Shown piece after piece: positions 10,515-47,087 of a stretch of 64,000 nt of DNA. Position numbers and translations under genes: made by a program. The notes under the pieces are model-generated. The model was given only the letters and a program-made list of their open reading frames with translations, ran no database searches and was not told the DNA's origin. The stretch's first letter is position 1; every line of letters begins with the position of its first letter. The stretch is from Eledone cirrhosa (Eukaryota): the NCBI GenBank assembly GCA_964016885.1, contig OZ024742.1, forward strand, positions 149,048,001 through 149,112,000, in the 5' to 3' direction.

Positions 10515-10985
10515 GATCATCATCACCACCATTTAACATCCATTTTACATGCTTGCATGGGTTAGACAGGCTGTCATATCATGGGGCCAGACTTGTCAGG
10601 TGACCACATCTTGCTCATATGATCCATTTTGGGCTTGGTTTTCTTCCTAACACCAACCATCTTATAGGGTGGATTGGATGGTTTTGTCATGTCACCAACA
10701 TGACTACCTTACAAGGTAGACTGATTGCTTTTTGTCATATCACCAGCATAACCACCTTGCAGGGTAGACTGGGTGCTTTTTGTCATGGCACCAGCATGAC
10801 TACCTTACATGGTGGACAGAGTGCTTTTTGTTATGTTACTAGCACAACCACCTTACAGGGTAGACTGGGTGCTTTTTGTCATGTCACCAGCACGACCACC
10901 TTATAGGGTAGAGTGGGTGCTTTTTGTCATGTCACTAGCACAACCACCTTACAGGGTTGACTGGATGCTTTTTGTCATAGCATGT
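10515..10985 (-). mobile_element. RTE-tailed SINE fragment with an internal 48-bp unit expanded to ~7 copies
   Basis: (CAT)n tail and catgcttgcatgggttagac terminus; the tgtcat/tgttat anchor recurs every 48 bp from 10686 to 10974. Confidence 0.88.
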
Positions 10986-11006
10986 GCATGACTAAACATA
11001 ACTCAC

Positions 11007-13662: not shown

Positions 13663-13740
13663 CTTATATTCTTCAACAACAACAGCTAAAGCATCATGTC
13701 CAGCTTGTCGAATGGCTTCCAAATCAGATGCATGTTTTGC
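13663..13740 (-). CDS. CCDC91: Signature exon: AKHASDLEAIRQAGHDALAVVVEEYK
   Basis: tttcag acceptor and gtcagt donor; 78 bp. Resembles the human CCDC91 segment KHKQELEDMRKAGHEALSIIVDEYK (recalled from memory, not searched). Confidence 0.92.
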
Positions 13741-16223: not shown

Positions 16224-16328
16224 TTGTAAAGACTCATATTTAGATTTCTGCTCAGAAAGTTGAACTTGCAGGCTATCTACCCGAGAGGTTAGCTCTATAT
16301 TTCTGCTACGCAGTTCATCCAGTTGCTT
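16224..16328 (-). CDS. CCDC91: Coiled-coil exon: KQLDELRSRNIELTSRVDSLQVQLSEQKSKYESLQ
   Basis: gttttacag acceptor and gtaagt donor; 105 bp, phase 0-0; Leu heptads. Confidence 0.88.
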
Positions 16329-17288
16329 CTGTAAAACAAAATTTAAAAAATGCTTTAATAACTGTTGGTATACAAGGGTTATATTTGGCTGTGAGTTATA
16401 TGTGTAGCTGCATAGTCATATTTGTGTGTGTATGTATATCTCTGCATGGTTCTCTATGTGTATGTATATATTTGTGTGCTTATATCCATTTATGTAGATG
16501 TCCATCTTTATATTATAATAATGCCCATAGTAAATGGAGGTTGTATAATATTGTTGGTGCACCCAATTGTGTTCAAACGTAATTAAATGTCCATCTGTAT
16601 ATATGCATTATATGACTAGTCAATGCAACGGTTACTCAATATTAAAAGAAATCACTTCAAGATATCTTTAATCTACATCAAACCCAATCTATTCATTCCC
16701 ACAATCACACTACTTATATACTGCACACAATTATTTCTCATCATATCATCATCATCATTTTTACATCAACTTTTCCATACTGGCATGGGTTGGATGGGAC
16801 TTTTGAGGCAATGTTTTACAACCACATGACCTTCCTAATATCAACCCTTTTAGTCACTTCTTACCACACTCAGAAATACTGTGTACTTATTCTAAACTGG
16901 ATACACACAGCCATATATCTATGCCATTAAAGTTGGTTCTTCCCAATACAGTGAACGATGCTTGTCATATCGAAATGTCTTATTTGATAATTTACAAAAT
17001 CCTGCTGCACCTAAAACAAACCAGACACACATAAATGTTCTATAATATCTATGTTTTGCTTCTATTTAGGACAAATGAATTATGATGACACCACTGTAAG
17101 ATGAGCATAGCAGATAAGAAAGTTTGGCAGATGTTGTTGAGGTTGTGTGTGAATGTGTGTTGACTAGTCAAAATCTAGAGAATGGCTGAATCTAAGTTGG
17201 AATTCAATAGTCCAGCATCTCATAGCTTCACAACCATTATGTTGATTACAAAGCTGAAAATATAAATAAACACTTTATCAATAATTAC

Positions 17289-17870
17289 CAATAAGTAACT
17301 GTCTCTTTGTCCATCAGAATGATCACGTCGCCTCTCCTGCTTTGGAACAACGGGCAAACCACCAGTAGCACCACCAAGATCTTCAATTACAGAGGGTGGT
17401 TGCTGCTGCTGCTGTTGTGATGTTGGTGGATGTGTGCGTTGGTGGTGTGGATGATGGTGTTGTGGTAAAGATTGGTGGTGGTGGTGCTGTTGTTGTTGTT
17501 GTTGTTCCTGCTGCGGCAGAGGTGTGGGAGGGTGTGGTTGCGGCGGCAGAGGTTGCCGTATACATTGGTCAGGGACATAATGTTGGGGTCCATTCATAAC
17601 CTCATCAAAGCTTGGACAGCGAGGAGATGCAGATGCATTTCCATGTCGCCAGTTTGCTGACTGGTTGAGGTCCGGTACATCAGCCATGGAGATGCCTTCG
17701 TGGCCATATGATGGACGCCTCCAGCTTGGTCCCGCGGGGCTGACTAGATCTACACCAGCAACACTGTTATTGAGATCACACCGCCTCACTTGGTGATCAG
17801 TCATAGTCGGAGCATTAAACATTCCATTCATCATATTTTGTTGCATACCATGCCGTTCCAGATTCAAATT
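17289..17870 (-). CDS. CCDC91: Large Q/H/P-rich exon (194 codons): NLNLERHGMQQ...RDSYLL
   Basis: TACTAAT branch point plus ttttcag acceptor, gtaatt donor; 582 bp open frame, phase 0-0, GC-richer than the flanks. The donor position is less certain. Confidence 0.75.
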
Positions 17871-17910
17871 CTGAAAATTAAAAAAATTAGTAAAACTTGA
17901 AAAACTATGA

Positions 17911-20900
17911 TGTAAGCACTAGAGATGGTGGTATTATAGTGAGGTAAGCACTAGAGATGGTGGTATTATAGAGAGGTAAGCACTAGAGATGGTGGTATTA
18001 TAGAGAGGTTAGCACTGGAGATGGTGGTATTATAGAGAGGTTAGCACTAGAGATGGTGGTATTATAGAGAGGTAAGCACTAGAGATGGTGGTATTATAGT
18101 GAGGTTAGCACTGGAGATGGTGGTATTATAGAGAGGTTAGTACTAGAGATGGTGATATTATAGAGAGGTTAGTACTAGAGATGGTGGTATTATAGTGAGG
18201 TTAGTACTAGAGATGGTGGTATTATAGAGAGGTAAGCACTAGAGATGGTGGTATTATAGAGAGGTTAGCACTAGAGATGGTGGTATTATAGAGAGGTTAG
18301 TACTAGAGATGGTGGTATTATAGAGAGGTTAGCACTAGAGATGGTGGTATTATAGTGAGGTTAGTACTAGAGATGGTGGTATTATAGTGAGGTAAGCACT
18401 AGAGATGGTGGTATTATAGTGAGGTAAGCACTAGAGATGGTGGTATTATAGTGAGGTTAGCACTAGAGATGGTGGTATTATAGTGACGTTAGCACTAGAG
18501 ATGGTGGTATTATAGTGAGGTAAGCACTAGAGATGGTGGTATTATAGAGAGGTTAGCACTGGAGATGGTGGTATTATAGAGAGGTTAGCACTAGAGATGG
18601 TGGTATTATAGAGAGGTAAGCACTAGAGATGGTGGTATTATAGTGAGGTTAGCACTGGAGATGGTGGTATTATAGAGAGGTTAGTACTAGAGATGGTGAT
18701 ATTATAGAGAGGTTAGTACTAGAGATGGTGGTATTATAGTGAGGTTAGTACTAGAGATGGTGGTATTATAGAGAGGTAAGCACTAGAGATGGTGGTATTA
18801 TAGAGAGGTAAGCACTAGAGATGGTGGTATTATAGAGAGGTTAGCACTAGAGATGGTGGTATTATAGAGAGGTTAGCACTAGAGATGGTGGTATTATAGA
18901 GAGGTTAGCACTAGAGATGGTGGTATTATAGAGAGGTTAGCACTAGAGATGGTGGTATTATAGAGAGGTTAGCACTAGAGATGGTGGTATTATAGAGAGG
19001 TTAGTACTAGAGATGGTGATATTATAGAGAGGTTAGTACTAGAGATGGTGGTATTATAGTGAGGTAAGCACTAGAGATGGTGGTATTATAGTGAGGTTAG
19101 TACTAGAGATGGTGGTATTATAGAGAGGTTAGCACTAGAGATGGTGGTATTATAGAGAGGTTAGCACTAGAGATGGTGGTATTATAGAGAGGTTAGCACT
19201 AGAGATGGTGGTATTATAGAGAGGTTAGCACTAGAGATGGTGGTATTATAGAGAGGTTAGTACTAGAGATGGTGGTATTATAGTGAGGTTAGCACTAGAG
19301 ATGGTGGTATTATAGAGAGGTTAGTACTAGAGATGGTGGTATTATAGAGAGGTTAGTACTAGAGATGGTGGTATTATAGAAAGGTAAGCACTAGAGATGG
19401 TGGTATTATAGAGAGGTTAGTACTAGAGATGGTGATATTATAGAGAGGTTAGTACTAGAGATGGTGGTATTATAGAGAGGTTAGTACTAGAGATGGTGGT
19501 ATTATAGTGAGGTAAGCACTAGAGATGGTGGTATTATAGAGAGGTAAGCACTAGAGATGGTGGTATTATAGAGAGGTTAGCACTAGAGATGGTGGTATTA
19601 TAGAGAGGTAAGCACTAGAGATGGTGGTATTATAGTGAGGTAAGCACTAGAGATGGTGGTATTATAGAGAGGTTAGTACTAGAGATGGTGGTATTATAGA
19701 GAGGTTAGTACTAGAGATGGTGATATTATAGAGAGGTTAGTACTAGAGATGGTGGTATTATAGAGAGGTTAGTACTAGAGATGGTGGTATTATAGTGAGG
19801 TAAGCACTAGAGATGGTGGTATTATAGAGAGGTTAGTACTAGAGATGGTGGTATTATAGTGAGGTAAGTACTAGAGATGGTGGTATTATAGTGAGGTTAG
19901 CACTAGAGATGGTGGTATTATAGAGAGGTTAGTACTAGAGATGGTGGTATTATAGTGAGGTAAGTACTAGAGATGGTGGTATTATAGTGAGGTAAGCACT
20001 AGAGATGGTGGTATTATAGTGAGGTAAGTACTAGAGATGGTGGTATTATAGTGTGGTAAGTACTAGAGATGGTGGTATTATAGTGAGGTAAGCACTAGAG
20101 ATGGTGGTATTATAGTGAGGTAAGTACTAGAGATGGTGGTATTATAGAGAGGTTAGTACTAGAGATGGTGGTATTATAGTGAGGTAAGCACTAGAGATGG
20201 TGGTATTATAGTGAGGTAAGCACTAGAGATGGTGGTATTATAGAGAGGTAAGTACTAGAGATGGTGGTATTATAGAGAGGTTAGCACTAGAGATGGTGGT
20301 ATTATAGTGAGGTTAGCACTAGAGATGGTGGTATTATAGTGAGGTAAGCACTAGAGATGGTGGTATTATAGAGAGGTTAGTACTAGAGATGGTGGTATTA
20401 TAGTGAGGTTAGCACTAGAGATGGTGATATTATAGTGAGGTAAGCACTAGAGATGGTGGTATTATAGAGAGGTTAGTACTAGAGATGGTGGTATTATAGT
20501 GAGGTAAGCACTAGAGATGGTGGTATTATAGAGAGGTTAGCACTAGAGATGGTGGTATTATAGTGAGGTAAGCACTAGAGATGGTGGTATTATAGTGAGG
20601 TTAGCACTAGAGATGGTGGTATTATAGTGAGGTAAGCACTAGAGATGGTGGTATTATAGAGAGGTTAGTACTAGAGATGGTGGTATTATAGAGAGGTTAG
20701 CACTAGAGATGGTGGTATTATAGAGAGGTTAGCACTAGAGATGGTGATATTATAGTGAGGTAAGCACTAGAGATGGTGGTATTATAGAGAGGTTAGTACT
20801 AGAGATGGTGGTATTATAGTGAGGTAAGCACTAGAGATGGTGGTATTATAGAGAGGTTAGCACTAGAGATGGTGGTATTATAGAGAGGTTAGCACTAGAG

Positions 20901-23900
20901 ATGGTGGTATTATAGAGAGGTTAGCACTAGAGATGGTGATATTATAGTGAGGTAAGCACTAGAGATGGTGGTATTATAGAGAGGTTAGTACTAGAGATGG
21001 TGGTATTATAGTGAGGTAAGCACTAGAGATGGTGGTATTATAGAGAGGTTAGCACTAGAGATGGTGGTATTATAGTGAGGTAAGCACTAGAGATGGTGGT
21101 ATTATAGAGAGGTTAGTACTAGAGATGGTGGTATTATAGTGAGGTAAGCACTAGAGATGGTGGTATTATAGAGAGGTTAGTACTAGAGATGGTGGTATTA
21201 TAGTGAGGTAAGCACTAGAGATGGTGGTATTATAGAGAGGTTAGCACTAGAGATGGTGGTATTATAGAGAGGTTAGTACTAGAGATGGTGGTATTATAGT
21301 GAGGTAAGCACTAGAGATGGTGGTATTATAGAGAGGTAAGCACTAGAGATGGTGGTATTATAGAGAGGTAAGCACCAGAGATGGTGGTATTATAGAGAGG
21401 TAAGCACTAGAGATGGTGGTATTATAGTGAGGTAAGCACTAGAGATGGTGGTATTATAGTGAGGTAAGCACTAGAGATGGTGGTATTATAGAGAGGTTAG
21501 CACTAGAGATGGTGGTATTATAGAGAGGTTAGCACTAGAGATGGTGGTATTATAGAGAGGTTAGCACTAGAGATGGTGATATTATAGTGAGGTAAGCACT
21601 AGAGATGGTGGTATTATAGAGAGGTTAGCACTAGAGATGGTGGTATTATAGAGAGGTTAGTACTAGAGATGGTGGTATTATAGAGAGGTAAGCACTAGAG
21701 ATGGTGGTATTATAGAGAGGTAAGCACTAGAGATGGTGGTATTATAGAGAGGTAAGCACTAGAGATGGTGGTATTATAGTGAGGTAAGCACTAGAGATGG
21801 TGGTATTATAGTGAGGTAAGCACTAGAGATGGTGGTATTATAGACAGGTTAGCACTAGAGATGGTGGTATTATAGAGAGGTTAGCACTAGAGATGGTGGT
21901 ATTATAGAGAGGTTAGCACTAGAGATGGTGATATTATAGTGAGGTAAGCACTAGAGATGGTGGTATTATAGAGAGGTTAGCACTAGAGATGGTGGTATTA
22001 TAGAGAGGTTAGTACTAGAGATGGTGGTATTATAGTGAGGTAAGCACTAGAGATGGTGGTATTATAGAGAGGTTAGTACTAGAGATGGTGGTATTATAGT
22101 GAGGTTAGCACTAGAGATGGTGATATTATAGAGAGGTTAGCACTAGAGATGGTGGTATTATAGAGAGGTTAGTACTAGAGATGGTGGTATTATAGTGAGG
22201 TAAGCACTAGAGATGGTGGTATTATAGTGAGGTAAGCACTAGAGATGGTGGTATTATAGTGAGGTAAGCACTAGAGATGGTGGTATTATAGAGAGGTTAG
22301 TACTAGAGATGGTGGTATTATAGTGAGGTAAGCACTAGAGATGGTGGTATTATAGTGAGGTAAGCACTAGAGATGGTGGTATTATAGTGAGGTAAGCACT
22401 AGAGATGGTGGTATTATAGTGAGGTAAGCACTAGAGATGGTGGTATTATAGTGAGGTAAGTACTAGAGATGGTGGTATTATAGAGAGGTTAGTACTAGAG
22501 ATGGTGGTATTATAGAGAGGTTAGCACTAGAGATGGTGGTATTATAGTGAGGTAAGCACTAGAGATGGTGGTATTATAGAGAGGTAAGCACTAGAGATGG
22601 TGGTATTATAGAGAGGTTAGTACTAGAGATGGTGGTATTATAGAGAGGTTAGTACTAGAGATGGTGGTATTATAGAGAGGTAAGCACTAGAGATGGTGGT
22701 ATTATAGAGAGGTTAGTACTAGAGATGGTGGTATTATAGAGAGGTTAGTACTAGAGATGGTGGTATTATAGTGGGGTTAGCACTAGAGATGGTGGTATTA
22801 TAGTGAGGTAAGCACTAGAGATGGTGGTATTATAGTGAGGTTAGCACTAGAGATGGTGGTATTATAGAGAGGTAAGCACTAGAGATGGTGGTATTATAGA
22901 GAGGTAAGCACTAGAGATGGTGGTATTATAGAGAGGTTAGCACTAGAGATGGTGGTATTATAGAGAGGTAAGCACTAGAGATGGTGGTATTATAGTGAGG
23001 TAAGCACTAGAGATGGTGGTATTATAGAGAGGTTAGTACTAGAGATGGTGGTATTATAGAGAGGTTAGTACTAGAGATGGTGATATTATAGAGAGGTTAG
23101 TACTAGAGATGGTGGTATTATAGAGAGGTTAGTACTAGAGATGGTGGTATTATAGTGAGGTAAGCACTAGAGATGGTGGTATTATAGAGAGGTTAGTACT
23201 AGAGATGGTGGTATTATAGTGAGGTAAGTACTAGAGATGGTGGTATTATAGTGAGGTTAGCACTAGAGATGGTGGTATTATAGAGAGGTTAGTACTAGAG
23301 ATGGTGGTATTATAGTGAGGTAAGTACTAGAGATGGTGGTATTATAGTGAGGTAAGCACTAGAGATGGTGGTATTATAGTGAGGTAAGTACTAGAGATGG
23401 TGGTATTATAGTGTGGTAAGTACTAGAGATGGTGGTATTATAGTGAGGTAAGCACTAGAGATGGTGGTATTATAGTGAGGTAAGTACTAGAGATGGTGGT
23501 ATTATAGAGAGGTTAGTACTAGAGATGGTGGTATTATAGTGAGGTAAGCACTAGAGATGGTGGTATTATAGTGAGGTAAGCACTAGAGATGGTGGTATTA
23601 TAGAGAGGTAAGTACTAGAGATGGTGGTATTATAGAGAGGTTAGCACTAGAGATGGTGGTATTATAGTGAGGTTAGCACTAGAGATGGTGGTATTATAGT
23701 GAGGTAAGCACTAGAGATGGTGGTATTATAGAGAGGTTAGTACTAGAGATGGTGGTATTATAGTGAGGTTAGCACTAGAGATGGTGATATTATAGTGAGG
23801 TAAGCACTAGAGATGGTGGTATTATAGAGAGGTTAGTACTAGAGATGGTGGTATTATAGTGAGGTAAGCACTAGAGATGGTGGTATTATAGAGAGGTTAG

Positions 23901-26900
23901 CACTAGAGATGGTGGTATTATAGTGAGGTAAGCACTAGAGATGGTGGTATTATAGTGAGGTTAGCACTAGAGATGGTGGTATTATAGTGAGGTAAGCACT
24001 AGAGATGGTGGTATTATAGAGAGGTTAGTACTAGAGATGGTGGTATTATAGAGAGGTTAGCACTAGAGATGGTGGTATTATAGAGAGGTTAGCACTAGAG
24101 ATGGTGATATTATAGTGAGGTAAGCACTAGAGATGGTGGTATTATAGAGAGGTTAGTACTAGAGATGGTGGTATTATAGTGAGGTAAGCACTAGAGATGG
24201 TGGTATTATAGAGAGGTTAGCACTAGAGATGGTGGTATTATAGAGAGGTTAGCACTAGAGATGGTGGTATTATAGAGAGGTTAGCACTAGAGATGGTGAT
24301 ATTATAGTGAGGTAAGCACTAGAGATGGTGGTATTATAGAGAGGTTAGTACTAGAGATGGTGGTATTATAGTGAGGTAAGCACTAGAGATGGTGGTATTA
24401 TAGAGAGGTTAGCACTAGAGATGGTGGTATTATAGTGAGGTAAGCACTAGAGATGGTGGTATTATAGAGAGGTTAGTACTAGAGATGGTGGTATTATAGT
24501 GAGGTAAGCACTAGAGATGGTGGTATTATAGAGAGGTTAGTACTAGAGATGGTGGTATTATAGTGAGGTAAGCACTAGAGATGGTGGTATTATAGAGAGG
24601 TTAGCACTAGAGATGGTGGTATTATAGAGAGGTTAGTACTAGAGATGGTGGTATTATAGTGAGGTAAGCACTAGAGATGGTGGTATTATAGAGAGGTAAG
24701 CACTAGAGATGGTGGTATTATAGAGAGGTAAGCACCAGAGATGGTGGTATTATAGAGAGGTAAGCACTAGAGATGGTGGTATTATAGTGAGGTAAGCACT
24801 AGAGATGGTGGTATTATAGTGAGGTAAGCACTAGAGATGGTGGTATTATAGAGAGGTTAGCACTAGAGATGGTGGTATTATAGAGAGGTTAGCACTAGAG
24901 ATGGTGGTATTATAGAGAGGTTAGCACTAGAGATGGTGATATTATAGTGAGGTAAGCACTAGAGATGGTGGTATTATAGAGAGGTTAGCACTAGAGATGG
25001 TGGTATTATAGAGAGGTTAGTACTAGAGATGGTGGTATTATAGAGAGGTAAGCACTAGAGATGGTGGTATTATAGAGAGGTAAGCACTAGAGATGGTGGT
25101 ATTATAGAGAGGTAAGCACTAGAGATGGTGGTATTATAGTGAGGTAAGCACTAGAGATGGTGGTATTATAGTGAGGTAAGCACTAGAGATGGTGGTATTA
25201 TAGACAGGTTAGCACTAGAGATGGTGGTATTATAGAGAGGTTAGCACTAGAGATGGTGGTATTATAGAGAGGTTAGCACTAGAGATGGTGATATTATAGT
25301 GAGGTAAGCACTAGAGATGGTGGTATTATAGAGAGGTTAGCACTAGAGATGGTGGTATTATAGAGAGGTTAGTACTAGAGATGGTGGTATTATAGTGAGG
25401 TAAGCACTAGAGATGGTGGTATTATAGAGAGGTTAGTACTAGAGATGGTGGTATTATAGTGAGGTTAGCACTAGAGATGGTGATATTATAGAGAGGTTAG
25501 CACTAGAGATGGTGGTATTATAGAGAGGTTAGTACTAGAGATGGTGGTATTATAGTGAGGTAAGCACTAGAGATGGTGGTATTATAGTGAGGTAAGCACT
25601 AGAGATGGTGGTATTATAGTGAGGTAAGCACTAGAGATGGTGGTATTATAGAGAGGTTAGTACTAGAGATGGTGGTATTATAGTGAGGTAAGCACTAGAG
25701 ATGGTGGTATTATAGTGAGGTAAGCACTAGAGATGGTGGTATTATAGTGAGGTAAGCACTAGAGATGGTGGTATTATAGTGAGGTAAGCACTAGAGATGG
25801 TGGTATTATAGTGAGGTAAGTACTAGAGATGGTGGTATTATAGAGAGGTTAGTACTAGAGATGGTGGTATTATAGAGAGGTTAGCACTAGAGATGGTGGT
25901 ATTATAGTGAGGTAAGCACTAGAGATGGTGGTATTATAGAGAGGTAAGCACTAGAGATGGTGGTATTATAGAGAGGTTAGTACTAGAGATGGTGGTATTA
26001 TAGAGAGGTTAGTACTAGAGATGGTGGTATTATAGAGAGGTAAGCACTAGAGATGGTGGTATTATAGAGAGGTTAGTACTAGAGATGGTGGTATTATAGA
26101 GAGGTTAGTACTAGAGATGGTGGTATTATAGTGGGGTTAGCACTAGAGATGGTGGTATTATAGTGAGGTAAGCACTAGAGATGGTGGTATTATAGTGAGG
26201 TTAGCACTAGAGATGGTGGTATTATAGAGAGGTAAGCACTAGAGATGGTGGTATTATAGAGAGGTTAGCACTAGAGATGGTGGTATTATAGAGAGGTTAG
26301 TACTAGAGATGGTGGTATTATAGTGAGGTAAGCACTAGAGATGGTGGTATTATAGTGAGGTTAGCACTAGAGATGGTGGTATTATAGAGAGGTAAGCACT
26401 AGAGATGGTGGTATTATAGAGAGGTTAGCACTAGAGATGGTGGTATTATAGAGAGGTTAGCACTAGAGATGGTGGTATTATAGAGAGGTTAGCACTAGAG
26501 ATGGTGGTATTATAGTGAGGTAAGCACTAGAGATGGTGGTATTATAGTGAGGTTAGCACTAGAGATGGTGGTATTATAGAGAGGTTAGCACTAGAGATGG
26601 TGGTATTATAGAGAGGTTAGCACTAGAGATGGTGGTATTATAGTGAGGTTAGCACTAGAGATGGTGGTATTATAGAGAGGTAAGCACTAGAGATGGTGGT
26701 ATTATAGAGAGGTTAGTACTAGAGATGGTGGTATAATAGTGAGGTAAGCACTAGAGCTGGTGGTATTATAGAGAGGTTAGTACTAGAGATGGTGGTATTA
26801 TAGAGAGGTTAGCACTAGAGATGGTGGTATTATAGTGAGGTTAGCACTAGAGATGGTGGTATTATAGTGAGGTTAGCACTAGAGATGGTGGTATTATAGA

Positions 26901-29900
26901 GAGGTTAGCACTAGAGATGGTGGTATTATAGAGAGGTTAGCACTAGAGATGGTGGTATTATAGAGAGGTTAGTACTAGAGATGGTGATATTATAGAGAGG
27001 TTAGCAATAGAGATGGTGGTATTATAGAGAGGTTAGCACTAGAGATGGTGGTATTATAGAGAGGTTAGCACTAGAGATGGTGGTATTATAGAGAGGTTAG
27101 TACTAGAGATGGTGGTATTATAGAGAGGTTAGCACTAGAGATGGTGATATTATAGAGAGGTTAGTACTAGAGATGGTGGTATTATAGAGAGGTTAACATG
27201 AGAGATGGTGGTATTATAGAGAGGTTAGTACTAGAGATGGTGGTATTATAGAGAGGTTAGCACTAGAGATGGTGATATTATAGAGAGGTTAGTACTAGAG
27301 ATGGTGGTATTATAGTGAGGTTAGTACTAGAGATGGTGGTATTATAGAGAGGTTAGTACTAGAGATGGTGGTATTATAGAGAGGTTAGTACTAGAGATGG
27401 TGATATTATAGAGAAGTTAGCACTAGAGATGGTGGTATTATAGAGAGGTTAGTACTAGAGATGGTGATATTATAGAGAGGTTAGTACTAGAGATGGTGGT
27501 ATTATAGAGAGGTTAGTACTAGAGATGGTGGTATTATAGAGAGGTTAGTACTAGAGATGGTGGTATTATAGAGAGGTTAGTACTGGAGATGGTGGTATTA
27601 TAGAGAGGTTAGCACTAGAGATGGTGATATTATAGAGAGGTAAGCACTAGAGATGGTGGTATTATAGAGAGGTTAGCACTAGAGATGGTGGTATTATAGA
27701 GAGGTTAGTACTAGAGATGGTGGTATTATAGTGAGGTAAGCACTAGAGATGGTGGTATTATAGAGAGGTTAGCACTAGAGATGGTGATATTATAGTGAGG
27801 TAAGCACTAGAGATGGTGGTATTATAGAGAGGTTAGTACTAGAGATGGTGGTATTATAGTGAGGTAAGCACTAGAGATGGTGGTATTATAGAGAGGTTAG
27901 CACTAGAGATGGTGGTATTATAGAGAGGTTAGCACTAGAGATGGTGGTATTATAGAGAGGTTAGCACTAGAGATGGTGATATTATAGTGAGGTAAGCACT
28001 AGAGATGGTGGTATTATAGAGAGGTTAGTACTAGAGATGGTGGTATTATAGTGAGGTAAGCACTAGAGATGGTGGTATTATAGAGAGGTTAGCACTAGAG
28101 ATGGTGGTATTATAGTGAGGTAAGCACTAGAGATGGTGGTATTATAGAGAGGTTAGTACTAGAGATGGTGGTATTATAGTGAGGTAAGCACTAGAGATGG
28201 TGGTATTATAGAGAGGTTAGTACTAGAGATGGTGGTATTATAGTGAGGTAAGCACTAGAGATGGTGGTATTATAGAGAGGTTAGCACTAGAGATGGTGGT
28301 ATTATAGAGAGGTTAGTACTAGAGATGGTGGTATTATAGTGAGGTAAGCACTAGAGATGGTGGTATTATAGAGAGGTAAGCACTAGAGATGGTGGTATTA
28401 TAGAGAGGTAAGCACCAGAGATGGTGGTATTATAGAGAGGTAAGCACTAGAGATGGTGGTATTATAGTGAGGTAAGCACTAGAGATGGTGGTATTATAGT
28501 GAGGTAAGCACTAGAGATGGTGGTATTATAGAGAGGTTAGCACTAGAGATGGTGGTATTATAGAGAGGTTAGCACTAGAGATGGTGGTATTATAGAGAGG
28601 TTAGCACTAGAGATGGTGATATTATAGTGAGGTAAGCACTAGAGATGGTGGTATTATAGAGAGGTTAGCACTAGAGATGGTGGTATTATAGAGAGGTTAG
28701 TACTAGAGATGGTGGTATTATAGAGAGGTAAGCACTAGAGATGGTGGTATTATAGAGAGGTAAGCACTAGAGATGGTGGTATTATAGAGAGGTAAGCACT
28801 AGAGATGGTGGTATTATAGTGAGGTAAGCACTAGAGATGGTGGTATTATAGTGAGGTAAGCACTAGAGATGGTGGTATTATAGACAGGTTAGCACTAGAG
28901 ATGGTGGTATTATAGAGAGGTTAGCACTAGAGATGGTGGTATTATAGAGAGGTTAGCACTAGAGATGGTGATATTATAGTGAGGTAAGCACTAGAGATGG
29001 TGGTATTATAGAGAGGTTAGCACTAGAGATGGTGGTATTATAGAGAGGTTAGTACTAGAGATGGTGGTATTATAGTGAGGTAAGCACTAGAGATGGTGGT
29101 ATTATAGAGAGGTTAGTACTAGAGATGGTGGTATTATAGTGAGGTTAGCACTAGAGATGGTGATATTATAGAGAGGTTAGCACTAGAGATGGTGGTATTA
29201 TAGAGAGGTTAGTACTAGAGATGGTGGTATTATAGTGAGGTAAGCACTAGAGATGGTGGTATTATAGTGAGGTAAGCACTAGAGATGGTGGTATTATAGT
29301 GAGGTAAGCACTAGAGATGGTGGTATTATAGAGAGGTTAGTACTAGAGATGGTGGTATTATAGTGAGGTAAGCACTAGAGATGGTGGTATTATAGTGAGG
29401 TAAGCACTAGAGATGGTGGTATTATAGTGAGGTAAGCACTAGAGATGGTGGTATTATAGTGAGGTAAGCACTAGAGATGGTGGTATTATAGTGAGGTAAG
29501 TACTAGAGATGGTGGTATTATAGAGAGGTTAGTACTAGAGATGGTGGTATTATAGAGAGGTTAGCACTAGAGATGGTGGTATTATAGTGAGGTAAGCACT
29601 AGAGATGGTGGTATTATAGAGAGGTAAGCACTAGAGATGGTGGTATTATAGAGAGGTTAGTACTAGAGATGGTGGTATTATAGAGAGGTTAGTACTAGAG
29701 ATGGTGGTATTATAGAGAGGTAAGCACTAGAGATGGTGGTATTATAGAGAGGTTAGTACTAGAGATGGTGGTATTATAGAGAGGTTAGTACTAGAGATGG
29801 TGGTATTATAGTGGGGTTAGCACTAGAGATGGTGGTATTATAGTGAGGTAAGCACTAGAGATGGTGGTATTATAGTGAGGTTAGCACTAGAGATGGTGGT

Positions 29901-32900
29901 ATTATAGAGAGGTAAGCACTAGAGATGGTGGTATTATAGAGAGGTAAGCACTAGAGATGGTGGTATTATAGAGAGGTTAGCACTAGAGATGGTGGTATTA
30001 TAGAGAGGTAAGCACTAGAGATGGTGGTATTATAGTGAGGTAAGCACTAGAGATGGTGGTATTATAGAGAGGTTAGTACTAGAGATGGTGGTATTATAGA
30101 GAGGTTAGTACTAGAGATGGTGATATTATAGAGAGGTTAGTACTAGAGATGGTGGTATTATAGAGAGGTTAGTACTAGAGATGGTGGTATTATAGTGAGG
30201 TAAGCACTAGAGATGGTGGTATTATAGAGAGGTTAGTACTAGAGATGGTGGTATTATAGTGAGGTAAGTACTAGAGATGGTGGTATTATAGTGAGGTTAG
30301 CACTAGAGATGGTGGTATTATAGAGAGGTTAGTACTAGAGATGGTGGTATTATAGTGAGGTAAGTACTAGAGATGGTGGTATTATAGTGAGGTAAGCACT
30401 AGAGATGGTGGTATTATAGTGAGGTAAGTACTAGAGATGGTGGTATTATAGTGTGGTAAGTACTAGAGATGGTGGTATTATAGTGAGGTAAGCACTAGAG
30501 ATGGTGGTATTATAGTGAGGTAAGTACTAGAGATGGTGGTATTATAGAGAGGTTAGTACTAGAGATGGTGGTATTATAGTGAGGTAAGCACTAGAGATGG
30601 TGGTATTATAGTGAGGTAAGCACTAGAGATGGTGGTATTATAGAGAGGTAAGTACTAGAGATGGTGGTATTATAGAGAGGTTAGCACTAGAGATGGTGGT
30701 ATTATAGTGAGGTTAGCACTAGAGATGGTGGTATTATAGTGAGGTAAGCACTAGAGATGGTGGTATTATAGAGAGGTTAGTACTAGAGATGGTGGTATTA
30801 TAGTGAGGTTAGCACTAGAGATGGTGATATTATAGTGAGGTAAGCACTAGAGATGGTGGTATTATAGAGAGGTTAGTACTAGAGATGGTGGTATTATAGT
30901 GAGGTAAGCACTAGAGATGGTGGTATTATAGAGAGGTTAGCACTAGAGATGGTGGTATTATAGTGAGGTAAGCACTAGAGATGGTGGTATTATAGTGAGG
31001 TTAGCACTAGAGATGGTGGTATTATAGTGAGGTAAGCACTAGAGATGGTGGTATTATAGAGAGGTTAGTACTAGAGATGGTGGTATTATAGAGAGGTTAG
31101 CACTAGAGATGGTGGTATTATAGAGAGGTTAGCACTAGAGATGGTGATATTATAGTGAGGTAAGCACTAGAGATGGTGGTATTATAGAGAGGTTAGTACT
31201 AGAGATGGTGGTATTATAGTGAGGTAAGCACTAGAGATGGTGGTATTATAGAGAGGTTAGCACTAGAGATGGTGGTATTATAGAGAGGTTAGCACTAGAG
31301 ATGGTGGTATTATAGAGAGGTTAGCACTAGAGATGGTGATATTATAGTGAGGTAAGCACTAGAGATGGTGGTATTATAGAGAGGTTAGTACTAGAGATGG
31401 TGGTATTATAGTGAGGTAAGCACTAGAGATGGTGGTATTATAGAGAGGTTAGCACTAGAGATGGTGGTATTATAGTGAGGTAAGCACTAGAGATGGTGGT
31501 ATTATAGAGAGGTTAGTACTAGAGATGGTGGTATTATAGTGAGGTAAGCACTAGAGATGGTGGTATTATAGAGAGGTTAGTACTAGAGATGGTGGTATTA
31601 TAGTGAGGTAAGCACTAGAGATGGTGGTATTATAGAGAGGTTAGCACTAGAGATGGTGGTATTATAGAGAGGTTAGTACTAGAGATGGTGGTATTATAGT
31701 GAGGTAAGCACTAGAGATGGTGGTATTATAGAGAGGTAAGCACTAGAGATGGTGGTATTATAGAGAGGTAAGCACCAGAGATGGTGGTATTATAGAGAGG
31801 TAAGCACTAGAGATGGTGGTATTATAGTGAGGTAAGCACTAGAGATGGTGGTATTATAGTGAGGTAAGCACTAGAGATGGTGGTATTATAGAGAGGTTAG
31901 CACTAGAGATGGTGGTATTATAGAGAGGTTAGCACTAGAGATGGTGGTATTATAGAGAGGTTAGCACTAGAGATGGTGATATTATAGTGAGGTAAGCACT
32001 AGAGATGGTGGTATTATAGAGAGGTTAGCACTAGAGATGGTGGTATTATAGAGAGGTTAGTACTAGAGATGGTGGTATTATAGAGAGGTAAGCACTAGAG
32101 ATGGTGGTATTATAGAGAGGTAAGCACTAGAGATGGTGGTATTATAGAGAGGTAAGCACTAGAGATGGTGGTATTATAGTGAGGTAAGCACTAGAGATGG
32201 TGGTATTATAGTGAGGTAAGCACTAGAGATGGTGGTATTATAGACAGGTTAGCACTAGAGATGGTGGTATTATAGAGAGGTTAGCACTAGAGATGGTGGT
32301 ATTATAGAGAGGTTAGCACTAGAGATGGTGATATTATAGTGAGGTAAGCACTAGAGATGGTGGTATTATAGAGAGGTTAGCACTAGAGATGGTGGTATTA
32401 TAGAGAGGTTAGTACTAGAGATGGTGGTATTATAGTGAGGTAAGCACTAGAGATGGTGGTATTATAGAGAGGTTAGTACTAGAGATGGTGGTATTATAGT
32501 GAGGTTAGCACTAGAGATGGTGATATTATAGAGAGGTTAGCACTAGAGATGGTGGTATTATAGAGAGGTTAGTACTAGAGATGGTGGTATTATAGTGAGG
32601 TAAGCACTAGAGATGGTGGTATTATAGTGAGGTAAGCACTAGAGATGGTGGTATTATAGTGAGGTAAGCACTAGAGATGGTGGTATTATAGAGAGGTTAG
32701 TACTAGAGATGGTGGTATTATAGTGAGGTAAGCACTAGAGATGGTGGTATTATAGTGAGGTAAGCACTAGAGATGGTGGTATTATAGTGAGGTAAGCACT
32801 AGAGATGGTGGTATTATAGTGAGGTAAGCACTAGAGATGGTGGTATTATAGTGAGGTAAGTACTAGAGATGGTGGTATTATAGAGAGGTTAGTACTAGAG

Positions 32901-35900
32901 ATGGTGGTATTATAGAGAGGTTAGCACTAGAGATGGTGGTATTATAGTGAGGTAAGCACTAGAGATGGTGGTATTATAGAGAGGTAAGCACTAGAGATGG
33001 TGGTATTATAGAGAGGTTAGTACTAGAGATGGTGGTATTATAGAGAGGTTAGTACTAGAGATGGTGGTATTATAGAGAGGTAAGCACTAGAGATGGTGGT
33101 ATTATAGAGAGGTTAGTACTAGAGATGGTGGTATTATAGAGAGGTTAGTACTAGAGATGGTGGTATTATAGTGGGGTTAGCACTAGAGATGGTGGTATTA
33201 TAGTGAGGTAAGCACTAGAGATGGTGGTATTATAGTGAGGTTAGCACTAGAGATGGTGGTATTATAGAGAGGTAAGCACTAGAGATGGTGGTATTATAGA
33301 GAGGTTAGCACTAGAGATGGTGGTATTATAGAGAGGTTAGTACTAGAGATGGTGGTATTATAGTGAGGTAAGCACTAGAGATGGTGGTATTATAGTGAGG
33401 TTAGCACTAGAGATGGTGGTATTATAGAGAGGTAAGCACTAGAGATGGTGGTATTATAGAGAGGTTAGCACTAGAGATGGTGGTATTATAGAGAGGTTAG
33501 CACTAGAGATGGTGGTATTATAGAGAGGTTAGCACTAGAGATGGTGGTATTATAGTGAGGTAAGCACTAGAGATGGTGGTATTATAGTGAGGTTAGCACT
33601 AGAGATGGTGGTATTATAGAGAGGTTAGCACTAGAGATGGTGGTATTATAGAGAGGTTAGCACTAGAGATGGTGGTATTATAGTGAGGTTAGCACTAGAG
33701 ATGGTGGTATTATAGAGAGGTAAGCACTAGAGATGGTGGTATTATAGAGAGGTTAGTACTAGAGATGGTGGTATAATAGTGAGGTAAGCACTAGAGCTGG
33801 TGGTATTATAGAGAGGTTAGTACTAGAGATGGTGGTATTATAGAGAGGTTAGCACTAGAGATGGTGGTATTATAGTGAGGTTAGCACTAGAGATGGTGGT
33901 ATTATAGTGAGGTTAGCACTAGAGATGGTGGTATTATAGAGAGGTTAGCACTAGAGATGGTGGTATTATAGAGAGGTTAGCACTAGAGATGGTGGTATTA
34001 TAGAGAGGTTAGTACTAGAGATGGTGATATTATAGAGAGGTTAGCAATAGAGATGGTGGTATTATAGAGAGGTTAGCACTAGAGATGGTGGTATTATAGA
34101 GAGGTTAGCACTAGAGATGGTGGTATTATAGAGAGGTTAGTACTAGAGATGGTGGTATTATAGAGAGGTTAGCACTAGAGATGGTGATATTATAGAGAGG
34201 TTAGTACTAGAGATGGTGGTATTATAGAGAGGTTAACATGAGAGATGGTGGTATTATAGAGAGGTTAGTACTAGAGATGGTGGTATTATAGAGAGGTTAG
34301 CACTAGAGATGGTGATATTATAGAGAGGTTAGTACTAGAGATGGTGGTATTATAGTGAGGTTAGTACTAGAGATGGTGGTATTATAGAGAGGTTAGTACT
34401 AGAGATGGTGGTATTATAGAGAGGTTAGTACTAGAGATGGTGATATTATAGAGAAGTTAGCACTAGAGATGGTGGTATTATAGAGAGGTTAGTACTAGAG
34501 ATGGTGATATTATAGAGAGGTTAGTACTAGAGATGGTGGTATTATAGAGAGGTTAGTACTAGAGATGGTGGTATTATAGAGAGGTTAGTACTAGAGATGG
34601 TGGTATTATAGAGAGGTTAGTACTGGAGATGGTGGTATTATAGAGAGGTTAGCACTAGAGATGGTGATATTATAGAGAGGTAAGCACTAGAGATGGTGGT
34701 ATTATAGAGAGGTTAGTACTAGAGATGGTGGTATTATAGAGAGGTTAGTACTAGAGATGGTGGTATTATAGTGGGGTTAGCACTAGAGATGGTGGTATTA
34801 TAGAGAGGTTAGTACTAGAGATGGTGGTATTATAGCGAGGTTAGTACTAGAGATGGTGGTATTATAGAGAGGTTAGTACTAGAGATGGTGGTATTATAGA
34901 GAGGTTAGCACTAGAGATGGTGATATTATAGAGAGGTAAGCACTAGAGATGGTGGTATTATAGAGAGGTTAGTACTAGAGATGGTGGTATTATAGAGAGG
35001 TTAGTACTAGAGATGGTGGTATTATAGTGGGGTTAGCACTAGAGATGGTGGTATTATAGAGAGGTTAGTACTAGAGATGGTGGTATTATAGCGAGGTTAG
35101 TACTAGAGATGGTGGTATTATAGAGAGGTTAGTACTAGAGATGGTGGTATTATAGAGAGGTTAACATGAGAGATGGTGGTATTATAGAGAGGTTAGTACT
35201 AGAGATGGTGGTATTATAGAGAGGTTAGCACTAGAGATGGTGATATTATAGAGAGGTTAGTACTAGAGATGGTGGTATTATAGTGAGGTTAGTACTAGAG
35301 ATGGTGGTATTATAGAGAGGTTAGTACTAGAGATGGTGGTATTATAGAGAGGTTAGTACTAGAGATGGTGATATTATAGAGAAGTTAGCACTAGAGATGG
35401 TGGTATTATAGAGAGGTTAGTACTAGAGATGGTGATATTATAGAGAGGTTAGTACTAGAGATGGTGGTATTATAGAGAGGTTAGTACTAGAGATGGTGGT
35501 ATTATAGAGAGGTTAGTACTAGAGATGGTGGTATTATAGAGAGGTTAGTACTAGAGATGGTGGTATTATAGAGAGGTTAGCACTAGAGATGGTGATATTA
35601 TAGAGAGGTAAGCACTAGAGATGGTGGTATTATAGAGAGGTTAGTACTAGAGATGGTGGTATTATAGAGAGGTTAGTACTAGAGATGGTGGTATTATAGT
35701 GGGGTTAGCACTAGAGATGGTGGTATTATAGAGAGGTTAGTACTAGAGATGGTGGTATTATAGCGAGGTTAGTACTAGAGATGGTGGTATTATAGAGAGG
35801 TTAGTACTAGAGATGGTGGTATTATAGAGAGGTTAGCACTAGAGATGGTGATATTATAGAGAGGTAAGCACTAGAGATGGTGGTATTATAGAGAGGTTAG

Positions 35901-37826
35901 TACTAGAGATGGTGGTATTATAGAGAGGTTAGTACTAGAGATGGTGGTATTATAGTGGGGTTAGCACTAGAGATGGTGGTATTATAGAGAGGTTAGTACT
36001 AGAGATGGTGGTATTATAGCGAGGTTAGTACTAGAGATGGTGGTATTATAGAGAGGTTAGTACTAGAGATGGTGGTATTATAGTGGGGTTAGAAAGAGAG
36101 ATGGTGGTATTATAGAGAGGTTAACATGAGAGATGGTGGTATTATAGAGAGGTTAACATGAGAGATGGTGGTATTATAGAGAGGTTAGAACTAGAGATGG
36201 TGGTATTATAGAGAGGTTAGAAAGAGAGATGGTGGTATTATAGTGGGGTTAGCACTAAAGATGGTGGTATTATAGAGAGGTTAGAACTAGAGATGGTGGT
36301 ATTATAGAGAGGTTAACATGAGAGATGGTGGTATTATAGTGGGGTTAGAAAGAGAGATGGTGGTATTATAGTGGGGTTAGAAAGAGAGATGGTGGTATTA
36401 TAGTGGGGTTAGAAAGAGAGATGGTGGTATTATAGTGGGGTTAGAAAGAGAGATGGTGGTATTATAGTGGGGTTAGAAAGAGAGATGGTGGTATTATAGT
36501 GGGGTTAGAAAGAGAGATGGTGGTATTATAGTGGGGTTAGCACTAAAGATGGTGGTATTATAGTGGGGTTAGCACTAGAGATGGTGGTATTATAGAGAGG
36601 TTAGCACTAGAGATGGTGGTATTATAGTGAGGTTAGCACTAGAGATGGTGGTATTATAGAGAGGTTAGTACTAGAGATGGTGGTATTATAGTGAGGTTAG
36701 CACTAGAGATGGTGATATTATAGAGAGGTTAGCACAAGAGATGGTGGTATTATAGTGAGGTTAGCACTAGAGATGGTGGTATTATAGAGAGGTTAGCACT
36801 AGAAATGGTGGTATTATAGTGGGGTTAGCACTAGAGATGGTGGTATTATAGAGAGGTTAGTACTAGAGATGGTGATATTATAGAGAGGTTAGCACTAGAG
36901 ATGGTGGTATTATAGTGAGGTTAGCACTAGAGATGGTGGTATTATAGAGAGGTTAGTACTAGAGATGGTGGTATTATAGTGAGGTTAGCACTAGAGATGG
37001 TGATATTATAGAGAGGTTAGCACTAGAGATGGTGGTATTATAGTGGGGTTAGCACTAGAGATGGTGGTATTATAGAGAGGTTAGCACTAGAGATGGTGGT
37101 ATTATAGTGAGGTTAGCACTAGAGATGGTGGTATTATAGAGAGGTTAACACTAGAGATGGTGGTATTATAGTGAGGTTAGCACTAGAGATAGTGGTATTA
37201 TAGTGGGGTTAGCACTAGAGATGGTGATATTATAGAGAGGTTAGTACTAGAGATGGTGGTATTATAGAGAGGTTAGCACTAGAGATGGTGATATTATAGA
37301 GAGGTTATCACTAGAGATGGTGGTATTATAGAGAGGTTAGCACTAGAGATGGTGGTATTATAGAGAGGTTAGCACTAGAGATGGTGGTATTATAGAGAGG
37401 TTAGAACTAGAGATGGTGGTATCATAGTGAGGTTAACACTACAGATGGTGGTATTATAGAGAGCTTAGCACTAGAGATGGTGGTATTATAGTGGGGTTAG
37501 CACTACAGATGGTATTATAGTGGGGTTAGCACTACAGATGGTTTTATTATAGTGCGGTTAACACTAGAGATGGTGGTCCCTATAGTGGGGTTAGCACAAG
37601 AGATGGTGGTCTTATAGTGGGGTTAGAACTAGAGATGGTGGTATTATAGTGTGGTTAGCACTAGAGATGGTGGTATTTAAGTTGGGGTAGTCCTAGAGAT
37701 GGTGGTATTATAGTGAGGTTAGCACTAGAGGTGGTGGTATTATAGTGAGGTTAGCACTAGAGGTGGTGGTATTATAGTGAGGTTAGTACTAGAGATGGTG
37801 GTATTATAGTGGGGTTAACATGAGAG
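17911..37826. repeat. Intronic 32-bp satellite, ~620 units: AG(C/T)ACTAGAGATGGTG(G/A)TATTATAG(A/T)GAGGT(T/A)
   Basis: Period read directly. Rare variants recur at 3360-bp and 7040-bp spacing. The right end is degenerate. Confidence 0.99.
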
Positions 37827-38472
37827 AAAAGCACCAAGTCCACCTTCAAGAGTGAACTACAACCATCCTAAAAGGTGGATTGGGTGCTTTGCATCATGAT
37901 ACCAGTATGACCAGCAAAGTAATATAATTTATCCATTTCAGATAAATTGCTTATCTGAAATAGTACTGCTTGTACCACGTAAAAAGCTACCAGTAAATGC
38001 TGAAATGTGGTTGGTGTTAAGAAGGACATATGAACGAGATGTGGCCACCAGACCTGTCTAGCTTCATAACATCTAACCTATGCAAGCATGGAAAATAAAT
38101 GTTAAATGATGATGATCATAATCTAATTCAATAATTTATAAGTATATTCAAATATTTACAGCTACTCAAACAACAGTATTAAGTTAGACAAGGCCTGAGA
38201 TTGTTTCCTAAAATATGTCAGAGCTTATCCTATTCATGTAACATGGTAAATTTATACCAACATGAAATGGAAAAGAAAACAAAGTGGTTGTAAATAATTG
38301 TTTTAAAAGAGAGAGAAAAAGAGATACAACATGAAAATTGTCTTTAGGGAGGCTATTTTCTGGAACAATAAAAATCTGATTTAAAAGAGTAAAAGTGTAA
38401 AGAGTAATTTTAATGAAAAATCTGAGAAAAAACAGGGGAAATCTAATATCCAAATTCATTACACAAACTGAC

Positions 38473-38648
38473 CTGTCCAATGTCTGGCAAGAGATTGGCA
38501 TCAAACTGACTAACTACGGCTGCTCCAGTCACAACACTATCTGCTGCCATTCGTTCGTGAACAGATGGTGGTGAATCAAGATGCCTGGGAAATGTGTTCT
38601 GAGCACACAGAAGATCTGGCTGAGAATGGGCTGGTCTTTGCTGCAAAT
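38473..38648 (-). CDS. CCDC91: CCDC91-like exon: (D)LQQRPAHSQPDLLCAQ...DANLLPDIGQ
   Basis: cattttag acceptor and gtcagt donor; 176 bp, phase 1-0, in frame with both neighbours. Confidence 0.8.
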
Positions 38649-38817
38649 CTAAAATGGAAATTCAAATATTATTACTTTTGAAATGCTGGATCGTGCAACA
38701 GAAAAATAAATCTTTCTGCTGGCATGATGTGTGTCTGATAAAACAAACAACAGCATTTAGTTGTTTTAATGACTGTTCTAGTTGGTTTGAAGCAAAAGAG
38801 AACACCTATATAATTAC

Positions 38818-38905
38818 CTGGAGGAAACATCATCCATGGTAAATTGCCTGCATTTGGTCCAGCAGCCATACCTTGAGGTTCATGAGGTGGTACTGGTTCT
38901 GCAGC
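38818..38905 (-). CDS. CCDC91: CCDC91-like exon: AAEPVPPHEPQGMAAGPNAGNLPWMMFPP
   Basis: ttacag acceptor and gtaatt donor; 88 bp, phase 0-1. Continues FGGFQ-AAE...PW..FP, as in the vertebrate FGGFEAAE...PWAAFP. Confidence 0.85.
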
Positions 38906-40754: not shown

Positions 40755-42915
40755 ATATGACAACTTGCTGCAGGATACTGATGAAACTTGTGGCTGGAGC
40801 AGAGCTCCAACCAGACAAAGAGTGACCTGGTGGTGGAACAGCACAGTAGATAAGGCCATTAGAGACAAAAGACTAGCATGGAAGGCTTGGAAAAAGGGTG
40901 GGAGTAGGGAAGAATATACAGCCACTAAGAGAGAAGCTTGATGTCAGGTGTACTTAGCACGCAGGGAGGCGGAGAGTAGGAGGTTTGCCAATGTTCTGCG
41001 ACGGGAAGATCAGAGGCGTGCGGTGTTCCACATTGCAAGGCAGTGTGTCAATGCAAATCAGGAAGTTGTTGGAGATAAATGTGTCCGGGATGATGCCGGT
41101 GTACTTAGTGTCACGAATGATCAGAAAAAGGAGGCCTAGAAATATCTTTATGAGAGACTGATGAATGTGGAGAACGAATGGGAGAGAGAGAAATTACCCT
41201 TAGTAGATCCGACAGAGGGACCAGCTATTGAGATTGACGAATATAGGGTCCAAGAGGCAATTAGGGAAATGAAAAATGGTAAGGCTGCTGGACCATCGGG
41301 AATAGTTGCTGAGATGCTGAAGGCATCAGGGGACGTAGGCACTAAACTGGTTGCACGCATCATCAATCAGGCTATATATGGTGGTGTCATACCCAAAGAC
41401 AAATTGCTACAAAGGTAAAGGGGATGCTCTCGAGAGGAGCAATTATAGGGGTATAAAACTGATGGATCAGGTTATGAAAGTGGCAGAAAGGATATTAGCA
41501 CAACTAATTAGAGAAAGGGTCAAACTAGATGAGATGTAGTTTGGTTTTGTGCCGGGGAAGAGTACAACAGATGCCCTCTTCTTGGTGAGACAATTGCAAG
41601 AGAGGTTCTTAGAGAAAAATAAGCCACTATACTTAGCCTTTGTTGACCTAGAGAAGGCCTTTGATAGGGTACCCCGATCTGTCATCTGGTGGTCCCTAAG
41701 GAAGCTAGGTGTTGAAGAATGGCTTGTGAGGACAGTGCAAACTTTGTACAGAGGTACTCTCAGTAAAGTCAGGGTAGGAATGGAGTTTAGTGAGGAATTC
41801 CAGATACAAGTAGGAGTACATCAAGGTTCGGTCCTCAGCCCGCTCTTGTTCATTATAGTCCTCCAAGCCATAACAGAGGAGTTTAAGACTGGCTGTCCAT
41901 GGGAACTTCTCTATGCTGACGATCTGGTTCTTATAGCAGAATCAGGAGAGGAGCTAGAGAATAAATTCTGGCTATGGAAACAGCAGTTGGAAGCAAGAGG
42001 ACTGAGAGTGAACCTAGCTAAGACAAAAGTGTTGATGAGTAGAAAAGAGGACAAAACCCTGATTCCGTCAGGGAAATGGCCATGTTCGATATGCAGAAAA
42101 GGAACTGGCATAAATTCTATAAAATGCACACAATGCAGATCCTGGGTACACAAGAGATGTAGTGGGATAGCAGGCAAACTAACAGGTAGGGAGAAATATG
42201 TATGCAGTAGATGTACAGGGAAATTAGACAGTAGAAGTCGCATTGATAGACACATTTTTCAGATGCAGGAGGGCGCTATAGAAGTGGTGGATAGCTTCCG
42301 GTACCTAGGAGATCAGATTAGCATGGGAGGAGGGTGTTCCGAGGCCATAGTATCTAGAATAAGGACGAGTTGGAAGAAGTTTAGGGAGCTGCTTCCTCTG
42401 TTGATGAAGAAGGGTTTCTCCCTGCGTACGAAAGGCCGGTTGTATGATGCCTGTGTGAGGAGCGCGATGCTGCATGGTAGTGAGACATGGGCAGCAACTG
42501 CAGAGGATATGCGACGGCTGGAGAGAAATGAGGCAAGCATGCTCCGTTGGATGTGCAGTGTAAATGTGCGTGAACGACCCAGCATAAATATGTTGAGAGA
42601 GAAACTGTGTCTGAGAGGGATAGAATGTAGTGTATGGGAGAGGAGACTGAGGTGGTATGGACATGTGATGCGCATGGAGGATGATCGATGGGTGAAGAAG
42701 TGCCAGGAAATGCCAGTTGAAGGAAGACGTGGTAGAGGTAGACCACGAAAAACATGGGCGGAGGTGGTGAGAACAGACCTCAGATCATTGAAGCTCACGA
42801 TGGAGATGACGAAGGACCGTGACGAGTGTAGAGATGCTGTGCTGAATCAGACCCGTCCCACCCTTGCAAGCAGGGAAAAGCAGACGTAAAATGATGATGA
42901 TGAATGATGATGATG
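40755..42915 (+). mobile_element. 5'-truncated RTE LINE (family A, essentially no 3'UTR); RT open frame 41549-42889
   Basis: FVDLEKAFD, QGSVLSP, YADD, FRYLG, RLRWYGHVMR and GRPRKTW motifs; stops and a deletion in the 5' part; (GAT)n tail; no APE domain present. Confidence 0.97.
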
Positions 42916-47005: not shown

Positions 47006-47087
47006 TATATATATATATATAGATATATTTATATATATATATATACACATACATATATAGACACACATATACACATATATATATACA

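Follow-up and report, generated by a model that had tools for sequence, protein, structure and literature searches.

A 64,000-nt stretch of the Eledone cirrhosa genome (assembly GCA_964016885.1, contig OZ024742.1, positions 149,048,001 to 149,112,000 of the forward strand; 'the window' below, numbered from its first letter) carries a gene on its minus strand, one intron of which is almost completely filled by a 32-bp tandem repeat. On the gene strand many of the repeat units spell a branch-point sequence, a bipartite element of the Quaking (STAR-family) type and an AG, and the array ends just short of a genuine splice acceptor. Do these words act in splicing, or are they an accident of the repeat? 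A preliminary description of the sequence proposed a sponge for SF1, QKI and U2, or a field of decoy 3' splice sites controlling the downstream exon, with a chance match in a neutral satellite as the alternative. It is the alternative that fits best: the array appears to be a young intronic minisatellite present at a single locus, and chance is the most likely source of its branch-point and QKI words (probability about 0.72).

Tandem Repeats Finder reports a single array at 17915-37817 (period 32, 622 copies, 94% matches), which bears out the 20-kb intronic array of 32-nt units first described. The gene-strand consensus unit is UGCUAAC-CUCUCUA-UAAU-ACCACCAUCUC-UAG. Cutting the array into units yields 49 unit types with four common variable sites, and the unit formula and variable positions given earlier were correct. 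The heptamer is TACTAAC in 175 of the 622 units, TGCTAAC in 200, TGCTTAC in 201 and TACTTAC in 22; none of the four is found on the plus strand of the array. All 175 TACTAAC units (28% of the total) have a UAAU half-site 7 nt 3' of the heptamer and so read UACUAAC-N7-UAAU, as had been described for 18125-18142. A quaking response element (QRE) is defined by a NACUAAY core and a neighbouring UAAY half-site (PMC2697983), and these 175 units contain both. ACUAAY is absent from the consensus unit, whose heptamer is UGCUAAC; the view of the units as branch-point/QKI modules is therefore right for the 175 but overstated for the array. Of the perfect, weak or absent branch points that the variants were suggested to provide, the last do not occur, since all four heptamers fit the loose YUNAY consensus. 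The YNYURAY branch consensus is matched in 397 units. The sole AG of the unit is its UAG, which ends 26 nt past the branch A (about 25 nt had been estimated), and the gene strand of the array contains 605 AGs. The first YAG is expected 18-40 nt downstream of a branch point, and the array combines a branch consensus with a first YAG at this distance. ACUAAY occurs at 8.8 per kb in the array and 0.34 per kb in its flanks, a 26-fold difference, and the array thus has the dense, multivalent motif content of known protein-recruiting repeat RNAs. The array stops about 41 nt short of the true acceptor at 17871 (40 bp had been given). This acceptor carries a UACUAAU of its own, and the closest perfect branch A of the array is 267 nt away from it. 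TACTAAC units do not increase along the array toward the acceptor, and after removal of duplicated blocks they make up the same proportion (74 of 265, 28%).

How readily such a unit arises was estimated from 20,000 shuffles of one unit with its three main polymorphisms, scored on one strand. TACTAAC appeared in 2.1% of shuffles, a bipartite QRE in 4.2% and YURAY with a well-placed YAG in 9.9%. The full composite module, which was defined after the data had been seen and must be set against a large number of trials, appeared in 0.06% (12 of 20,000). The number of trials was gauged from a blind sample of 58 10-kb stretches of the same genome (L039-L096) taken at round-number positions, with one chosen and one neighbouring stretch excluded. 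These contained 52 arrays of period 10-100, of which 28 were not simple repeats, and six of the 58 stretches consisted mostly or wholly of one minisatellite (19-50 bp period, at least 7.9 kb), with a different unit in each. About a tenth of this genome may be multi-kb minisatellite arrays; extrapolation would give some 1.4 x 10^5 non-simple arrays and, among them, on the order of 170 composites by chance. In one of the blind stretches (L055, G000:C2:340000001-340010000), 94% of the units contain TACTAAC and a QRE. Across the genome, 54,253 matches to triple-tandem TACTAAC were counted, 28 of them here, and the non-branch control TACCAAC is commoner, with 166,776. The whole-module pattern has 1,047 matches, 58 here and 989 elsewhere, some of the others including an intervening AG. 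Comparison with shuffled units and other satellites, as envisaged in the preliminary description, thus gives a divided answer: the composite is rare among shuffles, and at genome scale the array is not exceptional. Since denser UACUAAC arrays exist elsewhere in this repeat-rich genome, the motif match is likely a by-product of repeat expansion and not a selected decoy. Further multi-kb minisatellites with tandem TACTAAC were seen in L038 (G000:C1:1530950-1535000), L102/L107 (G000:C1:429.17 Mb) and L002 (G000:C21:31.13 Mb). A limited literature search found no description of such minisatellites in cephalopods.

The array is confined to one locus, since all 525 exact matches to a 21-nt unit core in the 3.0-Gb assembly fall in the window, none of them on the reverse strand. 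No copies were found at other loci of the assembly, where the only resemblances are low-complexity look-alikes of 71-72%, and a dispersed satellite family was accordingly rejected. The comparison of orientation among further copies that the preliminary description envisaged therefore has nothing to act on. Head-to-tail units in the 10-60 bp range, interspersed variants and a single location are the marks of a locus-specific minisatellite or variable number tandem repeat (VNTR). A protein-coding array was also discarded, as there are no open reading frames (ORFs) of 80 or more residues within it. Units diverge most at the 37.4-37.8 kb end of the array, where the boundary unit has UGUUAAC, and the boundary is homologous to a flanking dispersed repeat of about 48 nt up to the array start. 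The inverted pair of this repeat occupies 37828-37890, and further copies of it make up a short tandem array at 10654-10994.

The array AGs would probably make poor acceptors. U2AF favours U-rich tracts, and positions -20 to -4 hold 3-6 U at the 605 array AGs versus 8-14 at all 11 acceptors of the host gene; a run of four U is not found anywhere on the gene strand of the array. In this respect the array AGs do not resemble functional 3' splice sites. A matrix made from the host acceptors gives the real sites leave-one-out scores of 0.2-10.6 and the array sites at most -2.2, and 35% of the ordinary sense-strand AGs in the window exceed the array median. Lacking a U-rich tract, the array AGs are likely ignored by the spliceosome. 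A field of recursive-splicing ratchet points was considered as well; a ratchet site requires AG/GU juxtaposed on the sense strand, and since AGGT does not occur on the gene strand of the array there are no such points. Splicing to an array AG would bring in a stop codon 1 or 26 codons later at 598 of the 605 sites, and an in-frame stop within 31 codons at 604. The last array UAG, the exception entered in Table 1 as a potential extension of exon D, is not used as an acceptor in the spliced contig described below.

The exon downstream of the array, exon D, appears to be included as a rule. The donor at 38472 and the exon at 17289-17870, both given in the preliminary description, agree with protein homology, and the acceptor is also supported by a contig that joins exons. 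This 2,491-nt contig (depth 22) comes from run X4, which is not recorded as RNA but was treated as RNA because exons F, E and D are connected boundary to boundary in the contig; this contig leaves exon D at the normal acceptor and continues for 454 further letters. X4 has no cover on intronic 17874-17960, on the far array end or on exons B and C, and as a DNA run is also uncovered at exon B these holes are uninformative. Exon D is present in all 14 cephalopod proteins that span the region, 7 of which were first found with exon D as the query; two other cluster members are C-terminal fragments. No cephalopod isoform lacking D was found among the 17 matches of a whole-protein search whose length range covered the D-skipped form, and three Octopus bimaculoides RefSeq isoforms differ at downstream exons only. 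Among the 11 host acceptors, that of exon D alone has ACUAAY within 60 nt, and exon D could be SF1/QKI-sensitive whether the array is there or not. A STAR-dimer protein of the Quaking/How type is encoded in the genome. Given the motifs in 28% of units, their place on the transcribed strand beside a real acceptor and the existence of this gene, some STAR-protein binding to the nascent array RNA is plausible.

A course of events consistent with these data would begin with a short seed beside the decayed dispersed repeat, growing within an intron of about 700 nt. The 32-bp array would then have expanded recently, probably by slippage and unequal exchange, and its UACUAAC/QRE units probably represent a chance variant that was multiplied together with the others. 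Splicing would rely on definition of exon D through its own strong, U-rich acceptor, while SF1 or QKI would bind the nascent array RNA at most transiently and with little effect. Rare cryptic products from array AGs would be removed by nonsense-mediated decay, a turnover that we infer because 604 of the 605 array AGs lead to an in-frame stop within 31 codons.

Several observations weigh against an origin by chance without consequence. Few shuffled units (0.06%) produce the full composite, and tandem TACTAAC is 9-fold commoner genome-wide than its reversed control (54,253 vs 6,164), although TACCAAC likewise stands about 4-fold above its own. The AG in the L055 array is too near for acceptor geometry, which is found in 3 of 466 units there, and the comparison TACTAAC arrays may or may not be intronic. 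The array described here is on the transcribed strand, and the acceptor about 41 nt beyond its end is a bipartite QRE in its own right. An origin of the unit in the tail of the flanking 48-nt repeat was considered, and the similarity is not significant (58 of 300 shuffles were equally good). The acceptor matrix was built from 11 host sites only. On the RNA side there is a single contig, from a run whose type is unrecorded, and contigs tend to drop rare isoforms.

The alternative that survives best, though it remains unlikely, is an unselected effect in cis. QKI-type dimers on the 175 tandem QREs would raise the local QKI concentration near the true branch point (UACUAAU-N5-UAAU), slowing intron removal or causing tissue-specific, in-frame skipping of exon D to a degree scaled to array length. 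The QRE geometry of the units, the singular ACUAAY at the exon D acceptor and the STAR-dimer gene are as this would require, and loss of 582 nt would preserve the reading frame. QKI is reported to repress exons via tandem ACUAAC near the 3' splice site (PMC13004596), and the length of the ABCA7 VNTR tracks skipping of the downstream exon (PMC5954066). The QKI-sensitive elements described in PMC13004596 lie 34-43 nt from the acceptor, with an enrichment window of 20-60 nt, compared with 267 nt for the closest perfect motif of the array; moreover, none of the 17 protein matches lacks D and the X4 contig includes it. The UACUAAC variant also creates the self-complementary UAGUACUA, with predicted pairing between adjacent units (structure z -0.8, weak), which also speaks against such an effect.

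A second and somewhat less probable alternative concerns the size of the array and leaves its nature unchanged. Here the exact 7-kb duplication (Table 1) would have been wrongly collapsed or doubled in assembly, and the true allele would be shorter (about 13 kb). The absence of mismatches over 6,978 bp and the three identical blocks of 3,397 bp invite this reading. The left array junction is crossed by contigs (17521-17941) of three DNA-like runs from one sample, and the right junction (37788-38099) by contigs of the one DNA-like run examined there. At the array ends the summed contig depth reaches about 430-1,280 times that of single-copy sequence, a crude figure that fits hundreds of units and gives no copy number. 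Both duplications carry every unit variant along alike, and unequal exchange is expected to give exact recent duplications. They point to very recent unequal exchange, with assembly over-expansion less likely, and suggest that the array is unstable.

Bolder proposals fare worse. That the array is a length- and variant-tunable QKI/SF1 field, competing with the exon D branch point or feeding QKI to it and so producing tissue-specific skipping, is very doubtful, as is the broader thought that the multi-kb UACUAAC arrays of this genome could be splicing rheostats in octopods. Least probable, and unsupported where the preliminary description had placed it first, is a selected decoy or sponge in which the intron or a stable lariat titrates SF1, QKI or U2 or offers regulated decoy acceptors with variants tuning their strength: the 26-fold motif density, the correct strand and the repeat RNAs known to gather splicing factors (PNCTR, PMC6224606; chicken LL2R, 10.64898/2026.03.19.712899) speak for it, but the locus is single and young, the perfect motif is a minority variant that is neither enriched nor spread, the AGs are U-poor and without ratchet sites, the normal acceptor is used in the one contig, all 14 proteins include exon D, tandem UACUAAC is common genome-wide and rarer than its control, denser arrays exist elsewhere, and 175 sites on a few nascent transcripts of two alleles would, assuming no stable accumulation, fall some 10-100 times below PNCTR.

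The opposite strand of the array offers a further illustration of what such repeats can spell. The plus (antisense) strand contains 219 perfect AG/GTAAG donor words and 3,436 AGs, against 605 on the sense strand, from which it follows that units of this kind readily spell splice words. As the mirror image of these donors, 219 gene-strand units read (U/G)CUUACCU or UACUUACCU, words that we take to resemble the 5' end of U1 small nuclear RNA. Low G content of the gene strand is shared by the two minisatellites at 50261-51517 (G 0.13 and 0.05). The orientation of the array may perhaps reflect survival of selection against donor-rich arrays, and three arrays are too few to judge this.

The host gene is CCDC91-like by homology. 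An O. bimaculoides protein can be aligned to the minus strand, one exon after another, between 52.3 kb and 3.3 kb of the window, and matches mollusc and echinoderm proteins named CCDC91 or CCDC91-like (E 6e-37 to 5e-22). Exon D is 72% identical to this O. bimaculoides protein and 53-60% identical to an Argonauta protein and five unnamed proteins. Pfam gave no family above cut-off for the host protein, and neither the window nor the 10 kb adjoining it yielded the first coding exon. Each of exons A, B and C ends in CAG; B and C together comprise 264 nt (38473-38905), and their joint skipping would preserve the frame. The upstream introns and the region beyond contain ORFs (41140-42889, 46140-49337, 52479-53534, 44049-44524 and 59288-59728) that, by eye, we presume to be reverse-transcriptase-like, from long interspersed nuclear elements, or transposase-like.

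Table 1. Features of the array, its intron and the host gene (window coordinates)
Feature	Coordinates	Strand	Details	Basis
Minisatellite array	17912-37820	-	32-bp repeat, 622 units	Repeat finding and unit cutting
Tandem duplication	20699-34716		Exact, 6,978 bp (20699-27676 = 27739-34716), lag 220 units, 0 mismatches	Base-level lags
Threefold block	19509-33305		Exact, 3,397 bp x3 (19509-22905, 22869-26265, 29909-33305), 105-unit higher-order period	
Dispersed-repeat pieces	37818-37913		Two decayed inverted pieces of dispersed ~48-nt repeat; array starts at edge of one	
Intron containing the array	17871-38472	-	GU-AG, 20,602 nt; array is 97% (19.9 kb), ~700 nt outside array	
True acceptor of exon D	17871-17892	-	UACUAAU-UUUUU-UAAU-UUUCAG; bipartite QRE over likely branch point	Sequence
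Potential exon D extension	17871-17921	-	From last array UAG (17921-17919), 48 nt upstream of true acceptor; in frame, stop-free (ORF 17220-17918), 16 codons	
Exon A	52201-52266	-	Coding	
Exon B	38818-38905	-	Coding, 88 nt	
Exon C	38473-38648	-	Coding, 176 nt, upstream of array; donor CAG/GUCAGU at 38472	Protein homology
Exon D	17289-17870	-	582 nt, in-frame coding, Q/H/P-rich region	Protein homology and exon-joined contig
Exon E	16224-16328	-	Coding, downstream; joined to D in X4 contig	
Exon F	13663-13740	-	Coding, downstream	

The closest known counterparts are human intronic VNTRs. In F7, the repeated pseudo-sites of a 37-bp VNTR in intervening sequence 7 (IVS7) are reported to be normally silent (PMC1557585), and in ABCA7 the length of a 25-bp VNTR in intron 18 correlates with skipping of the downstream exon (PMC5954066). 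As described in these sources, both resemble the present array in being single-locus intronic tandem arrays beside a splice site with a splice signal in each unit. Both repeat a donor and start at it, whereas the Eledone array repeats branch-like and AG words upstream of an acceptor; with 622 units over 20 kb it is also the longer array and contains higher-order duplications, and any effect of it is hypothetical. The systems of QRE recognition and SF1/QKI competition described in PMC2697983 and PMC13004596 use the same core and half-site that occur in the 175 units and at the true acceptor. The functional sites reported there number one or two within about 60 nt of the 3' splice site; the array has hundreds, all of them 267 nt or more from the acceptor and carried by a minority variant, with binding only predicted. 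A HeLa cell is reported to contain about 36 copies of PNCTR, each with 565-2,178 motifs, and some 286,000 PTBP1 molecules (PMC6224606). Like LL2R (10.64898/2026.03.19.712899), PNCTR shares with the array hundreds of motifs for RNA-binding proteins or splice signals per tandem-repeat transcript. In these accounts both are dedicated, accumulating transcripts with demonstrated protein recruitment, in contrast to an intron of a coding gene for which accumulation is not in evidence. The satellite-filled giant introns of Drosophila kl-3 and kl-5 (PMC6508621) are, as here, almost wholly tandem repeat, but are described as megabase-sized and tied to a dedicated spermatocyte programme, while this intron is 20 kb and such arrays fill about a tenth of the blind samples.

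A limited literature search found no precedent for a tandem UACUAAC decoy array or for an intronic satellite that sequesters splicing proteins. If the array were a regulatory field after all, it would represent a tandem-repeat decoy for SF1 and QKI, and satellite turnover could quickly retune cephalopod splicing. On the reading preferred here, it is an ordinary large intronic minisatellite in an array-rich genome. As such it would offer a natural test of how the spliceosome ignores hundreds of branch-point/AG pseudo-sites, an acceptor-side mirror of the F7 donor VNTR.

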